Source of the DNA: Escherichia phage vB_EcoM_G17
Strand: one strand, 5' to 3'
Sequence record: MK327931.1
Length of the DNA: 64,000 nt
Shown here: one piece after another, positions 49,587 to 56,899 of the stretch
How the letters are laid out: every line of letters begins with the position of its first letter
Position numbering within the stretch: the stretch's first letter is position 1
The notes under the pieces: generated by a model
Told to the model about the DNA's origin: nothing
Seen by the model: only the letters and a program-made list of their open reading frames with translations
Databases searched by the model: none
Position numbers and translations under genes: made by a program

Positions 49587-49805
49587 TTATTTTGAATTAT
49601 ACAAGCAGTACAGGTATACCAATGGAGTAAAATGTTCGGAATCTATTATATATATTAACTGAGTAACATATATTCCATATAGATCTCGTGATTTATCTCT
49701 GTACATTAACAATGATTTATTTAAGTAAGGATCAACCCAGTACTTAATATCATTGTACTTCAACGTGTTGTTACGGTAACCTGATAGTTTTGAATTTTTA
49801 TTCAA
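49587..49805 (-). CDS. Hypothetical protein (72 aa)
   Basis: ORF overlapping the upstream gene by 8 nt. Confidence 0.4.
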   Translation of the reverse strand: MNKNSKLSGYRNNTLKYNDIKYWVDPYLNKSLLMYRDKSRDLYGIYVTQLIYIIDSEHFTPLVYLYCLYNSK

Positions 49806-50175
49806 TTTTCTTACAATTACTCAGTAAGTGAATGATATCATCAGCAGTGAATGGTCCCAATACCAGAACTTCTTCACCATTACCGAAAATGCTCAATGGC
49901 ACTGATTGTTGACCAGCTAGATATTCAATTTGTTCCAGTTCGAAAATGTCATCAGCAGCATATACTACCTGCTCCATTTCATTATCTTTAATCCATGACT
50001 GCCAATGTTCTTTAAACTTCTTAGCTTCGTATTCTTGAACATAGTTAGGTGATTCAGGGTTGTATTGATGTAACATAGTCATCCCAGCCATTACTAATTC
50101 TTTAGGGGATGGTGTAGAATCTTTCAGTACTACGATAGCTTGGATAGTTTTTACTTTAACGTCATTAGCAGCCAT
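49798..50175 (-). CDS. PTH2-like peptidyl-tRNA hydrolase candidate (125 aa)
   Basis: By-eye alignment to archaeal/eukaryotic Pth2: AIVVLKD, central W...VV...D..EL motif, C-terminal VLVLGP (family hallmark V/I-L-x-I/V-GP); size typical of the family. Confidence 0.4.
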   Translation of the reverse strand: MAANDVKVKTIQAIVVLKDSTPSPKELVMAGMTMLHQYNPESPNYVQEYEAKKFKEHWQSWIKDNEMEQVVYAADDIFELEQIEYLAGQQSVPLSIFGNGEEVLVLGPFTADDIIHLLSNCKKIE

Positions 50176-50187
50176 TATATACCTCTA

Positions 50188-50505
50188 TTATAGAATGATT
50201 TTATTCTCAGGAACGAAAACTTTTGGAGTGTTTTCGATTGCTTTAATAGCATCAACATAAGCATCAACTAATGCAGGGTTTGCATCACTAACACTAATAA
50301 TGTTGGATTTATAAAAAATAACATTTTTCTCCATACTAACAAACTCTAGATAATCACGAAGAATGATTTCACCATTTTCGTCAGTCCCTAGTTGTGCTGG
50401 GTAGTTAACTACAACAGCTTCAGCAGAATCGGTTTGAAGAACTGCTAGTACTGGGCCAATGTTATTGATGTTTAGTAGTTTAACGGTCATAGTCATTTTT
50501 GTCAA
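50188..50505 (-). CDS. Hypothetical protein (105 aa)
   Basis: ORF. Confidence 0.5.
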   Translation of the reverse strand: MTKMTMTVKLLNINNIGPVLAVLQTDSAEAVVVNYPAQLGTDENGEIILRDYLEFVSMEKNVIFYKSNIISVSDANPALVDAYVDAIKAIENTPKVFVPENKIIL

Positions 50506-50515
50506 GTCCTTTTGT

Positions 50516-50992
50516 TTATTTTAGAATGTATAAGTGTTTTTCTGCATTGACCAGACGGTGATCAATGATTTCTTTGATAACGTTCCAGTTACCGCCGCCC
50601 AAATCGGCTCCAATTTTCGGGAAATGTACATGAACATCTCGATCAACTTTACAAAAATAATTTAGATGTTTGAACACATCGTCAATTGCATCATAACTGA
50701 CATATTTAGCACCGTCATTACCGTACATTTTTTGGGTAATACAGTTTGCAATAATCAAATTATCGTTAATTGCTGAATATGCAATTTGTCCAATTCTAAG
50801 AAATCCCATTTCCTTTTCATATGCTTTATAATCATCATATGCCATTGGGTAGCGATTCCTTAGTTCCTTTGCGAAACCAGAACCCATCTTACCTTGAGCA
50901 TTACATCCGTGAGCAATAATATGTAATGCATTTTGATCATCGGTAACAGTACTGAATAATTCAAACAGATTACCTCGGTGTTCATGAATCAT
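50516..50992 (-). CDS. Macro domain (ADP-ribose binding/processing) protein
   Basis: IIAHGCNAQGKMGSGFAKEL aligns with macro motif IVNAAN..L..GGGV..AI; second motif FPKIGADLGGGNW matches FP.ISTG..G.P. Confidence 0.65.
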   Translation of the reverse strand: MIHEHRGNLFELFSTVTDDQNALHIIAHGCNAQGKMGSGFAKELRNRYPMAYDDYKAYEKEMGFLRIGQIAYSAINDNLIIANCITQKMYGNDGAKYVSYDAIDDVFKHLNYFCKVDRDVHVHFPKIGADLGGGNWNVIKEIIDHRLVNAEKHLYILK

Positions 50993-51041
50993 TATATTCT
51001 CCGAAAAGAAAGGACTCTGTGGTCAGAGTCCTTATTTTAAA

Positions 51042-54594: not shown

Positions 54595-54990
54595 TTATAA
54601 AAAGCAATTATACAGTTTATTGTACAATATAAAAAGGTCTTTCACATTATCATAAGTAATATCAGATACATCATGAATTAATGATAACTGAAAAAATGAA
54701 GCTTCGTCTATTTCTGCTGGAATTATAACATCACCATCTTCTTCGTCCATTTTATTGGTGTAGTATTTTATGTGATCTACATTCAACTCAATAGAGAACG
54801 CAATGTTGGTTTTTGTATAATCTTCAATTAATCCAATATATTGAGATTTTTCATTAATAAAAAATCCAATCCCAACACAACGGTTATCTGGATATGGATA
54901 GTACCATCTATTAATAACTAGGTGTTCAGGTAAGTCCATATCATGTGTTGATATTAGAGATTTTACAATTTCCATCCAGGAATAATTCAT
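54595..54990 (-). CDS. Hypothetical protein (131 aa)
   Basis: ORF. Confidence 0.5.
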   Translation of the reverse strand: MNYSWMEIVKSLISTHDMDLPEHLVINRWYYPYPDNRCVGIGFFINEKSQYIGLIEDYTKTNIAFSIELNVDHIKYYTNKMDEEDGDVIIPAEIDEASFFQLSLIHDVSDITYDNVKDLFILYNKLYNCFL

Positions 54991-55043
54991 AATTAAAACT
55001 CCATAAGAAAAGGGACAGAATTAATCTGTCCCTTTAGTATATA

Positions 55044-55376
55044 TTACTCTTCGTTTTCTGTCAAATCATCAAGAACTGGGTGTTCTGGATGGTTTCGGCG
55101 GTGTAATTTAATGCTTTTGTCTTTACTGAATACAGTTTCCATCTTATCAAAAGATTCAACAATTGCTTTATACAAATCAGCATCATCAGCAGTTACTGAT
55201 TTACTACCAGCAGTTAAAGTTACAGCATATTGAGTTTTATGCTCTTTCTTAACATGAACACCAATGTCTAGTACTGAAGAAGTACGGTACTTATCCAGAC
55301 TTTTTGCTTCATTGTAAATAGCATCTTGGATTGCTGGAGTGATATCAACGTTGCCTTGGATATTTAGATTTAGCAT
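55044..55376 (-). CDS. hpf: Ribosome hibernation promoting factor / RaiA (YfiA) family protein
   Basis: Co-linear with E. coli HPF by eye: MLNLNIQGNVDITPAIQDAI...LDKY versus MQLNITGNNVEITEALREFV...LEQY, then V.VK.E.....A.L...G......A...D.Y.AI....DK and C-terminal K..H; AGGAAGG SD. Confidence 0.7.
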   Translation of the reverse strand: MLNLNIQGNVDITPAIQDAIYNEAKSLDKYRTSSVLDIGVHVKKEHKTQYAVTLTAGSKSVTADDADLYKAIVESFDKMETVFSKDKSIKLHRRNHPEHPVLDDLTENEE

Positions 55377-55393
55377 ACTTCACCTTCCTTTTT

Positions 55394-56353
55394 TTAGAGT
55401 GAACTTAACAACAAATCTGCTCGGTTTGTAACTTGACGATACCATAAGGAATTCATAATTTCTTTTTTAAATTTCTTAGGGTTATCATTTTTCACACTTT
55501 TCCAAAGTTTATTAAACGTTGCTAATTTATCAACACCCATTGTATAGGACATTTCATAAAGAATACGTTGTTGTTCTTTGGTCAGATTTACTGCTTCTTT
55601 TTTCTGCATCAATAATAAAAAGTCATTATATGTTCTTTTCATATCTTGCATTAAAAGTTTATTGGCTTGAGCTTTGGTAATACCGTTTCTGTACTTAATC
55701 GCATCAGATTCTTTTCTACCCAAATAATGCCCATAACCTATTGTATAATTACCTTTCATGTCCTTGTAGGGATGAAATTTAGAATTGTGGAAAGGAACTC
55801 CGACTTTCCCACCAAGTAAACGGCGTTTGTTCTTGGACTGAAATTCAATTGAACCTTCAGCTTCTTTGATGTGATTGACAATTTCTGGATCATTATAATC
55901 AAACAGTACAGTCACATCTGGTAACAATACGTTCTTCAAATCCTCTTTTGTTGGGATAAAGATACCCTGAGAAGTATGAAGAGTAGCATTTAAATTGATA
56001 TTTTTCAACAAAATAACATACTCTTCAAGTTGTACATTTTTAGGTTTAAACTTTTTAGCAATAGAATAATAACTATCACCAGGTTGAACCGTATAATGCT
56101 TCTCGCCGCGTGGAACATCCTTTGATATTTCTACCTTTGGTAATTCCTGCTTTTGAATTTGCGTAACTTGTGGTTTTAAATTGTGTACCTGACTTTCGTC
56201 CGATGATGATACACGATCATTTTGAGAAAAACCATAAAATCCAATCGCAGCGACAAGTACTGTGCAAACTAGAACACCATAAGTAGTCTTAGTTTTCAGT
56301 GCTTTTTTCGCTTGTTTCAAAACGCCTCCTTTGTTGATTGTTAAGATGGGCAA
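55394..56353 (-). CDS. Membrane-anchored LysM-domain lysozyme (GH24-like); probable TTG start at 56320
   Basis: N-terminal hydrophobic segment VLVCTVLVAAIGFYGF; LysM-like HYTVQPGDSYYSIAKKF; C-terminal YKDMKGNYTIGYGHYLG resembling T4 lysozyme E..Y.D..G..TIG.GH; no ATG near the 5' end, but AAGGAGG sits 4 nt before TTG at 56320. Confidence 0.6.
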   Translation of the reverse strand: MPILTINKGGVLKQAKKALKTKTTYGVLVCTVLVAAIGFYGFSQNDRVSSSDESQVHNLKPQVTQIQKQELPKVEISKDVPRGEKHYTVQPGDSYYSIAKKFKPKNVQLEEYVILLKNINLNATLHTSQGIFIPTKEDLKNVLLPDVTVLFDYNDPEIVNHIKEAEGSIEFQSKNKRRLLGGKVGVPFHNSKFHPYKDMKGNYTIGYGHYLGRKESDAIKYRNGITKAQANKLLMQDMKRTYNDFLLLMQKKEAVNLTKEQQRILYEMSYTMGVDKLATFNKLWKSVKNDNPKKFKKEIMNSLWYRQVTNRADLLLSSL

Positions 56354-56488
56354 TCACAAAGATGGCAAAGAGGCCATTTGTAAAAGCCTCATCGGACTTT
56401 CTACAGTACAAAAACGTTCTTTTCAAATGTTTAAGTAGTATAGCATATTTTTATTTTATTACAAGACATATTTACTGTAAAAACCACA

Positions 56489-56899
56489 TTAATCGTAGTA
56501 GGTTCTACCTACAGTGATGTGATATTTAAAGTACTTGGTTGGTAGTCCTAGTTCATTTCTAATATGTGTGATGAAATCATCTTCAAATTCAATGATAAAG
56601 AATGAACCTGGATTCTTTTTATCTTTTACTATCTCAATACAAGGATTGAACTTTATCTTTACTTTCATTCCATCGTACTTTTTCCAGTACTCTGGATTTG
56701 GTGGCACTTCACCACGAACGATACTGACATGTGCTCCCCATTGTGGGTCTTTAATATCAATATGTAAGTCAGTTCTGATGAAGTACTGGTAGTATCGAAC
56801 CAACTGTAATGGAAGTTGTAGTACTAACCAGAAGTCCTTCTTCTTTTTCATAGTGCCACGTTCTGGATCATACACCAGAGTTCCTTCCATTTCAATCAT
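56489..56899 (-). CDS. 2H-phosphoesterase-like protein candidate (LigT/Acb1-like)
   Basis: Two H-x-[ST]-x motifs (AHVSIV, YHITVG) about 60 residues apart in a 136-aa protein. Confidence 0.4.
   Translation of the reverse strand: MIEMEGTLVYDPERGTMKKKKDFWLVLQLPLQLVRYYQYFIRTDLHIDIKDPQWGAHVSIVRGEVPPNPEYWKKYDGMKVKIKFNPCIEIVKDKKNPGSFFIIEFEDDFITHIRNELGLPTKYFKYHITVGRTYYD

Follow-up and report, generated by a model that had tools for sequence, protein, structure and literature searches.

Why does a jumbo coliphage carry, within about 7 kb, four genes whose products would act on ribosomes or tRNA? The question is raised by positions 49798-56899 of a 64,000-nucleotide stretch of Escherichia phage vB_EcoM_G17 (MK327931.1; the whole stretch is called the window below), in which an earlier reading made from the letters alone (the sequence-only reading) had placed an HPF/RaiA homologue, a candidate PTH2-like peptidyl-tRNA hydrolase, a CCA-adding tRNA nucleotidyltransferase, and a protein with two H-x-[ST]-x motifs, and had joined them into one early suite acting on host translation and tRNA. 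Our analysis partly supported this proposal: the observation is largely real and its family calls are mostly right, whereas seeing one integrated early suite in it goes too far. The reading that we favor, with moderate confidence, is that the block represents a reduced Asteriusvirus version of a Rak2-like accessory island immediately upstream of the neck and tail-sheath genes, which appears to comprise several transcription units and to encode predicted enzymes of RNA ends and translation.

A proposed reduced accessory island in Asteriusvirus

Over window positions 49500-57200, the sequence matches Escherichia phage Sharanji (OR545507.1) with 100% identity. This phage is an Asteriusvirus with a genome of 350,079 bp and E. 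coli K-12 MG1655 as its isolation host, and about 35 further 121Q/PBECO4-like jumbo coliphages share 85-99% identity with the same segment. Using the Sharanji gene numbers, the four open reading frames (ORFs) were recovered exactly where they had been proposed, all on the minus strand and co-oriented with their neighbors:

49798..50175, minus strand: acidic PTH2-fold protein without the canonical PTH2 invariant residues (gp412)
52332..53444, minus strand: HD-less class II tRNA nucleotidyltransferase of the CCA-adding type (gp419)
55044..55376, minus strand: short HPF/RaiA-family protein (gp425), Pfam Ribosomal_S30AE 41 bits
56489..56899, minus strand: stand-alone 2H phosphoesterase of the 2H-SAK family (gp427)

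Profile searches agreed with the proposed family for three of these proteins and with the proposed fold for the fourth, and because of this the sequence-only reading did not fall on family placement, a failure of which it had named as grounds for its own refutation.

Neighborhoods were compared across loci of diverged homologues and 42 viral contigs carrying 2H-SAK relatives, which were scanned with hidden Markov models built from clade members; the 2H protein shares 53% identity or more in the Rak2-like loci and 25-42% in 27 more distant ones. All Rak2-like loci share one fixed order: TK ... Rnl-type RNA ligase, DUF2828/DUF7788, 2H, lysozyme, (HPF), CCA, NUDIX, glutaredoxin (Grx), (YqeY), Macro, PTH2-like, and neck; gene order was conserved at 20 clade loci. 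In sister genera (Yersinia phage fHe-Yen9-04, Xanthomonas phage XbC2, GAP32-like phages, and metagenomic contigs), the Rnl-type RNA ligase with its PHA02142 OB domain and the DUF2828/DUF7788 gene lie directly upstream of the 2H gene (L004 6296-9528, L007 6527-9748, and L008 4944-9814, the last with an additional PRTase_3 protein and HAD-like protein), and a YqeY-like protein follows Grx. The ligase, DUF2828, and YqeY are missing from Asteriusvirus and from one metagenomic lineage; a tblastn search with the clade ligase returned 334 phage records, among which the coliphage jumbo group was represented essentially by Escherichia phage EJP2 alone. No PDB sequence match placed DUF2828 as a relative of Ro60/TROVE. 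That these three genes belong to the sister-genus block lends support to a possible link with tRNA/RNA-end repair.

At its end, the block runs into late structural genes, with the gp13-like neck, dNMP kinase, and tail-sheath genes at this border. The neck gene is named as such in fEgEco12, and both neck and sheath proteins are present in the phAPEC6 virion proteome, in which no island protein was detected, including the lysozyme homologue Gp293; because the island products are missing from these virions while the flanking neck and sheath proteins were detected, they are considered non-structural. Four of about six genes for translation or tRNA proteins fall within 7.1 kb of the 350-kb genome, for which simulated random placement gave a P of ~5e-4 (6e-3 with 10 candidate genes), the gene category having been chosen after the fact. 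Other genes of this kind lie elsewhere in the Sharanji genome, with IF3 at 136 kb and the tRNA genes at 94-98 kb, and a tRNA adenosine deaminase is a separate Sharanji protein (WNN14772.1). The island would seem to encode non-virion enzymes that work on RNA ends, on the translation machinery, and on metabolites derived from nucleotides, most likely individually rather than as one machine.

The CCA-adding enzyme and the phage tRNA genes

The CCA-adding enzyme that had been proposed at 52332-53444 was confirmed at the family level. The 370-aa gp419 matched the Pfam PolyA_pol head (68.8 bits) and PolyA_pol_RNAbd neck (32.8 bits) and carries all class II motifs (GGYVRD at 7, DKD at 21 [D21-x-D23], RRD at 91, DPYGG at 110, and EDPLR at 132), and CCA-specific models scored 197-274 bits, against 91 for PcnB and 60.5 for an A-adding model. 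All of these scores are under the equivalog cutoffs because the alignment is limited to the N-terminal half; the NCBIfam E. coli-type Cca model NF008137 (273.8 bits; cutoff, 451) was covered at positions 1-207 of 409 only. Strong similarity links its head and neck to those of E. coli Cca (motifs GGxVRD, DxD, RRD, DPxGG, and EDxxR), but the E. coli enzyme possesses a C-terminal HD phosphohydrolase that gp419 does not have: nothing matched the C-terminal 163 residues, no HD dipeptide occurs in the protein, and residues 208-370 contain zero histidines. The HD domain is therefore absent, which makes "multifunctional CCA protein," the name given in the record, an overcall.

A plain housekeeping role for such an enzyme is suggested by the phage tRNA genes. 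None was found inside the window; seven were confirmed in Sharanji by ARAGORN, in a region outside the window (Sharanji record 93711-97953; L052 9712-13954). Reading of their 3' ends located an encoded CCA after the discriminator base in tRNA-Met, -Arg, and -Ser(TGA), while the other four (Thr, Asn, Gly, and Ser[ACT]) have CAA or CAT instead, so that CCA must be added to them post-transcriptionally. The tRNA-Met gene is 90 nt long, and the ACT anticodon of one tRNA-Ser is unusual. To our knowledge, CCA is encoded in all E. coli tRNA genes and the host Cca serves repair only. Set against the four CCA-less phage genes, this would make the phage enzyme sensible as a maturation factor, with or without a damage-countering role; judging by its motifs, gp419 may both finish these four tRNAs and rebuild damaged tRNA 3' ends.

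The 2H phosphoesterase

The two H-x-[ST]-x motifs reported at 56489-56899 correspond to H57-V-S59 and H127-I-T129 of gp427, and the 2H family call is right. In an alignment of 28 sequences, H57, H127, and T129 never vary, and S59 shows a conservation of at least 90%. The protein was assigned to the 2H fold; it scored 25.8 bits against Pfam 2H-SAK (PF22547; gathering score, 27), and a precomputed PF22547 match exists for 24 of 29 homologues. A protein of this family might open the 2',3'-cyclic phosphates that metal-independent RNases leave behind, feeding the adjacent RNA ligase in sister genera. In Sharanji, it may provide in trans the cyclic-phosphodiesterase function that is missing from the HD-less CCA enzyme.

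The HPF/RaiA-family protein

Positions 55044-55376 encode, as had been predicted, an HPF/RaiA homologue. The 110-aa gp425 matched Pfam Ribosomal_S30AE (PF02482) over residues 5-87 with 41.0 bits (cutoff, 23.7) and solved hibernation factors in the PDB at E values of 5e-7 to 5e-3. NCBIfam models do not separate HPF from RaiA for this protein (TIGR00741, 36.3 vs 40.9; HPF NF007780, 23.2 vs 125; RaiA NF007654, 19.3 vs 158). The C-terminal dimerization domain of long HPFs, which are 183-187 aa among the PDB matches, was not found in its 110 residues. It ends instead in a 20-residue extension, LHRRNHPEHPVLDDLTENEE, terminating in DDLTENEE, and the orthologues of sister phages likewise terminate in acidic runs. 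Since E. coli RaiA (113 aa; sequence checked in the PDB) ends in NFVEEVEEE, the length and acidic tail of gp425 resemble RaiA more than HPF (95 aa). A short RaiA-like factor of this kind might occupy the 30S decoding region, idling or protecting 70S ribosomes, or might compete with host hibernation factors. An HPF was previously reported in the jumbo phage GAP32 (Cronobacter, 358,663 bp) and in rV5-like phages (Mizuno et al. 2019, PMC6375957); like that of Sharanji, these are short S30AE proteins of ~105-111 aa from large myoviruses.

Several related lineages do without the gene. The viral contig L020 has the whole island with HPF at the same position, whereas six loci (L005, L006, L014, L015, L021, and L022) have lost HPF and retained the remaining block. 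In the Salmonella SD phages SD-1_S14, SD-2_S15, and SD-6_S16, HPF is truncated, with a match to 36-71% of its length, and P0005, the PTH2-like homologue, carries an internal deletion; together, these findings suggest decay of both genes in a Salmonella-infecting lineage.

The PTH2-fold protein

For gp412 (49798-50175), the proposed PTH2-like hydrolase was upheld as a fold and became doubtful as a function. Against Pfam PTH2 (PF01981), the protein scored 12.5 bits (E, 0.18) and did not reach the gathering score of 23, and its profile gave an E of 0.37 against PDB PTH2 entries; a direct hhalign comparison gave an E of 1e-4 at 57% probability, the PTH2 fold was assigned, and we consider the homology to be real. 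Archaeal and eukaryotic PTH2 enzymes, represented by five solved PDB sequences (1wn2, 2zv3, 1xty, 1q7s, and 1rlk), share the invariant columns G-K-G-K, A, Q, H, D-x-G-x-T, and P-G-T, and in gp412 all of these are replaced or deleted. A gap takes the place of the GKGK segment, and E26 stands at the Q position, M29 at H, and N99 at D; across the phage clade, the Asp column holds N (N99 in Sharanji), Q, E, or R, and the nine-residue G-x-T-Q-x-x-P-G-T loop after the DAG motif is deleted. The phage proteins have invariants of their own, including H36-Q-Y-N-P, H57-W, and F-G-N99-G-E101, and they are acidic (isoelectric point [pI] 4.4-4.8; gp412, 4.6), in contrast to four of the five solved enzymes, which are basic (pI 8.8-9.6). 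The invariant residues include Lys K18 and Asp D86 of S. solfataricus Pth2, which are reported to be catalytic (Fromant et al. 2005). The invariant E101, two residues past N99, could conceivably stand in for the missing Asp. Because the invariant residues and the loop are lost and the pI is 4.6, peptidyl-tRNA recycling by gp412 is doubtful; its residues point to a diverged PTH2 relative whose chemistry is probably other than canonical peptidyl-tRNA hydrolysis. PTH2 annotations in some records are overcalls in that gp412 is probably no standard peptidyl-tRNA hydrolase.

Neighboring genes and transcription signals

The four genes are interspersed with others, and the structural module begins downstream of them:

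55394..56353 (annotated start 56320), minus strand: LysM and phage-lysozyme protein, not translation-related (gp426; Pfam Phage_lysozyme 45.1 bits, LysM 22.4 bits)
53580..54405, minus strand: overlapping paralogous genes between HPF and CCA (gp421 and gp422)
51823..52224, minus strand: NUDIX hydrolase (gp418; Pfam NUDIX 48.5 bits)
51573..51821, minus strand: glutaredoxin (gp417; Pfam Glutaredoxin 34.6 bits)
50516..50992, minus strand: Macro-domain protein (gp414; phrog_335 E 1e-45; Pfam Macro 16.4 bits, below cutoff)
48745..49551, minus strand: T4 gp13-like neck protein, the downstream boundary and start of the structural module (the L005 orthologue matches PF26809, Phage_T4_gp13)

The NUDIX gene sits immediately downstream of CCA in every clade locus, and all clade members have Macro two genes away from the PTH2-like gene. 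The best curated match of the Macro protein is the NCBIfam DarG antitoxin macro domain (32.9 bits; E, 4e-8), which raises the possibility of a reversal of DarT-type DNA ADP-ribosylation. The predicted families of NUDIX and Macro would fit a clean-up of ADP-ribose or RNA-cap type. The products of gp421 and gp422 are 41% identical across their C-terminal 54 residues (BLASTP E, 9e-12), where they share the motif F-I-[DE]-D-T-F-G-I-D-[YF], and a Pfam search gave no family for either; gp424 was ruled out as a third copy (E, 1.8). The unannotated 261-bp gap between the PTH2-like and neck genes (49537-49797) holds a 72-aa ORF with a TTG start (49587-49805), and an A/T-rich TATATAAA-like element lies closely upstream of the neck gene. 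A DUF5856 protein at 61834-62274 (99.8 bits), with weak ferritin-like similarity, is conserved in relatives, where it lies at the upstream edge of synteny.

Three transcription-related features were located within the block:

55009..55035, no strand set: terminator-like G+C hairpin directly after HPF, described as strong, with an 11-bp stem AAAGGGACAG.../...CTGTCCCTTT followed by TCTTAT (minus strand)
52222..52331, minus strand: 110-bp intergenic region upstream of NUDIX with two extended -10 type motifs, TGATATAAT and TGGTATAAT
51010..51033, no strand set: terminator-like hairpin between gp415 and Macro, with a 10-bp stem, 5 GC pairs, and the tail TCTTTTCGGA (minus strand)

The gaps between genes measure 110 bp for CCA-NUDIX, 168 bp for 2H-lysozyme, and 261 bp for PTH2-like-neck. 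The extended -10 type motif TGNTATAAT occurs 18 times in the window, against 7.6 expected, a count reached in 0 of 100 shuffles; several copies lie in intergenic gaps on the coding strand, and examples are found at 52297-52305, 52233-52241, 48696-48704, and 57614-57622. This enrichment suggests a promoter class used by the phage, whereas a generic sigma-70 promoter scan gave 78 sites against 79 expected and hence no enrichment. Read from these signals, the block is predicted to be split by terminator-like hairpins and promoter-like motifs into several units and not to form a single operon.

Allele exchange within Asteriusvirus

Between Sharanji and 121Q (L009), each gene of the block shows 99-100% nucleotide identity except HPF (85.6%; 48 substitutions), 2H (95.1%), and Macro (96.2%). 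For these three genes, dS is 0.58, 0.20, and 0.21, respectively, against ~0 in their neighbors, and the ratio of nonsynonymous to synonymous divergence (dN/dS) is 0.14, 0.09, and 0.01; the divergent alleles are thus under purifying selection. The combination of low dN/dS and high local dS indicates old functional alleles that were exchanged by patchwise recombination, and the HPF divergence ends at residue 77, which puts a recombination breakpoint within this gene. Across Asteriusvirus records, the HPF allele class does not track backbone similarity: UE-S1 shares only 90% identity in this region although its HPF protein is identical, whereas for 121Q the region is 98.5% identical and the HPF protein 83.6%.

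Relation to published work

The sequence-only reading knew of no description of this combination as a unit. This holds for the arrangement, in that we found no paper on the contiguous island as such, and does not hold for the ingredients. Iyer et al. (2021, Viruses 13:63, PMC7824862) assigned PTH2, a CCA-adding enzyme, 2H, Macro, Nudix, and IF3 to an RNA-repair and ribosome-rescue toolkit of jumbo phages, in which 2H clears 2',3'-cyclic ends, the CCA enzyme restores 3' ends, PTH2 releases peptidyl-tRNA, Macro and Nudix process ADP-ribose products, and phage tRNAs are included. That proposal was based on phyletic patterns and domain architectures; the paper shows no neighborhood of this block and contains no occurrence of "hibernation" or "S30AE." The protein kinds in Sharanji are the same as in this toolkit, except that its island is without an RNA ligase and its PTH2-fold protein is without the canonical residues. 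Sharanji is a sigma-factor-encoding group 2 jumbo phage. Beyond the GAP32 HPF cited above, the Sharanji paper names S30EA and CCA among the translation genes. The fEgEco12 paper does not discuss these genes, and the PA5oct RNA-seq paper mentions no nucleotidyltransferase or CCA gene. The toolkit concept is therefore already published and the contiguous arrangement is a lineage trait, which leaves a modest novelty: a known toolkit, reduced in this genus.

Weighing of the readings

Several results weigh against the favored reading of a reduced island of RNA-end and translation enzymes. By both joint alignment and hhalign, none of the canonical PTH2 invariant residues is kept in the phage clade. 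The Sharanji HPF is itself acidic (pI 5.5), and the rV5 HPF, the sole phage HPF examined experimentally, was missing from the 70S and 100S fractions when expressed in E. coli and left 100S levels unaltered (PMC6375957). The clade's Rnl-type ligase is absent from Sharanji and Asteriusvirus by tblastn (RtcB, Rnl1, and PNK were not searched for), and without an adjacent RNA ligase a ligase-coupled role of 2H cannot apply in Sharanji. Outside the clade, 2H-SAK genes adjoin unrelated genes (DnaB, 5'-3' exonuclease, HNH, and unknowns), which means that gene context does not fix the 2H substrate.

The alternative that survives best, although we regard it as somewhat unlikely, is that there is no functional coupling at all and that unrelated genes of a hyperplastic accessory region are kept together by clade-wide collinearity. 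The flanking TK, gp13 neck, dNMP kinase, and sheath genes, which are unrelated, hold the same order in all clade loci, so that the synteny reflects general collinearity; HPF, the Rnl-type ligase, DUF2828, and YqeY were lost lineage by lineage; and the functions are mixed, with lysozyme, Grx, NUDIX, and Macro among them. Linkage is mostly lost outside the Rak2-like clade: of the 27 distant 2H-SAK loci, 3 have CCA, 1 a canonical PTH2, and 0 HPF within 10 kb, and 24 of the 27 do not reproduce the linkage. A complete lack of coupling is nevertheless at odds with the enrichment of RNA-end and translation genes, which is improbable by chance (at least four such genes here and up to seven in sister genera), and with the occurrence of CCA near distant 2H-SAK genes at 3 of 27 loci, where a rough, unsimulated expectation is below 1.

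The opposite extreme, the suite put forward by the sequence-only reading, in which co-expressed early anti-defence genes would park ribosomes, hydrolyze peptidyl-tRNA, and rebuild tRNA 3' ends after nuclease attack, seems to us unlikely. It can draw on the non-random clustering (P, ~5e-4), the co-orientation of all genes, the ligase, DUF2828, and YqeY that share the block in sister genera, the published concept (PMC7824862), and three distant loci, of which L045 has its 2H-SAK gene less than 10 kb from both a canonical PTH2 and a CCA homologue, while L038 and L039 have CCA nearby. Several results nevertheless speak against the claim that the four genes form one unit. Terminator-like hairpins after HPF and gp415 and promoter-like motifs between genes would split the block, and the linkage is inherited together with the unrelated flanks; HPF was lost from six loci that kept the rest and occurs at none of the 27 loci outside the clade; the PTH2-fold protein is without canonical residues; lysozyme, glutaredoxin, and seven unknown genes are interspersed; and the HPF, 2H, and Macro alleles were swapped as separate patches.

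Still less probable is a role of 2H, perhaps with Macro and NUDIX, as an eraser of immune signals or ADP-ribose metabolites modeled on Acb1 (an anti-CBASS nuclease of the 2H fold that destroys cyclic oligonucleotide signals; PDB 7t27) rather than in tRNA repair, since the similar size of gp427 (136 aa vs 140-159), the lack of an RNA ligase adjoining 2H in Sharanji, and the inclusion of signal degradation among the roles that PMC7824862 proposes for jumbo-phage 2H, Macro, and Nudix proteins are set against a PDB search that gave no sequence-level match to Acb1 even with a profile, Foldseek TM-scores of 0.42-0.45 to Acb1 entries, the Pfam assignment of the family to the RNA-repair 2H-SAK group, and a separate protein named Acb1 that fHe-Yen9-04 encodes besides its 2H-SAK orthologue.

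A more specific reading of the island can also be conceived, and we consider it very doubtful: the HD-less CCA polymerase and 2H might form a split-Cca counter-defence module at the tRNA 3' end, in which an acidic, catalytically rewired PTH2-fold protein would deacylate or unblock modified aminoacyl-tRNA ends (for instance, after acetylation by GNAT toxins or pyrophosphorylation by toxSAS/CapRel), the RaiA-like factor would idle ribosomes, and the patchwise exchange of HPF, 2H, and Macro alleles would reflect an arms race with host defences.

Implications

Collectively, our findings do not overturn the current understanding of jumbo-phage translation genes, in which the toolkit idea has so far been backed by comparative genomics alone. 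If the reading of the block as a reduced Rak2-like accessory island is true, Sharanji would offer a compact and tractable coliphage model, growing on E. coli K-12, for how jumbo phages may keep up tRNA and ribosomes under host attack.

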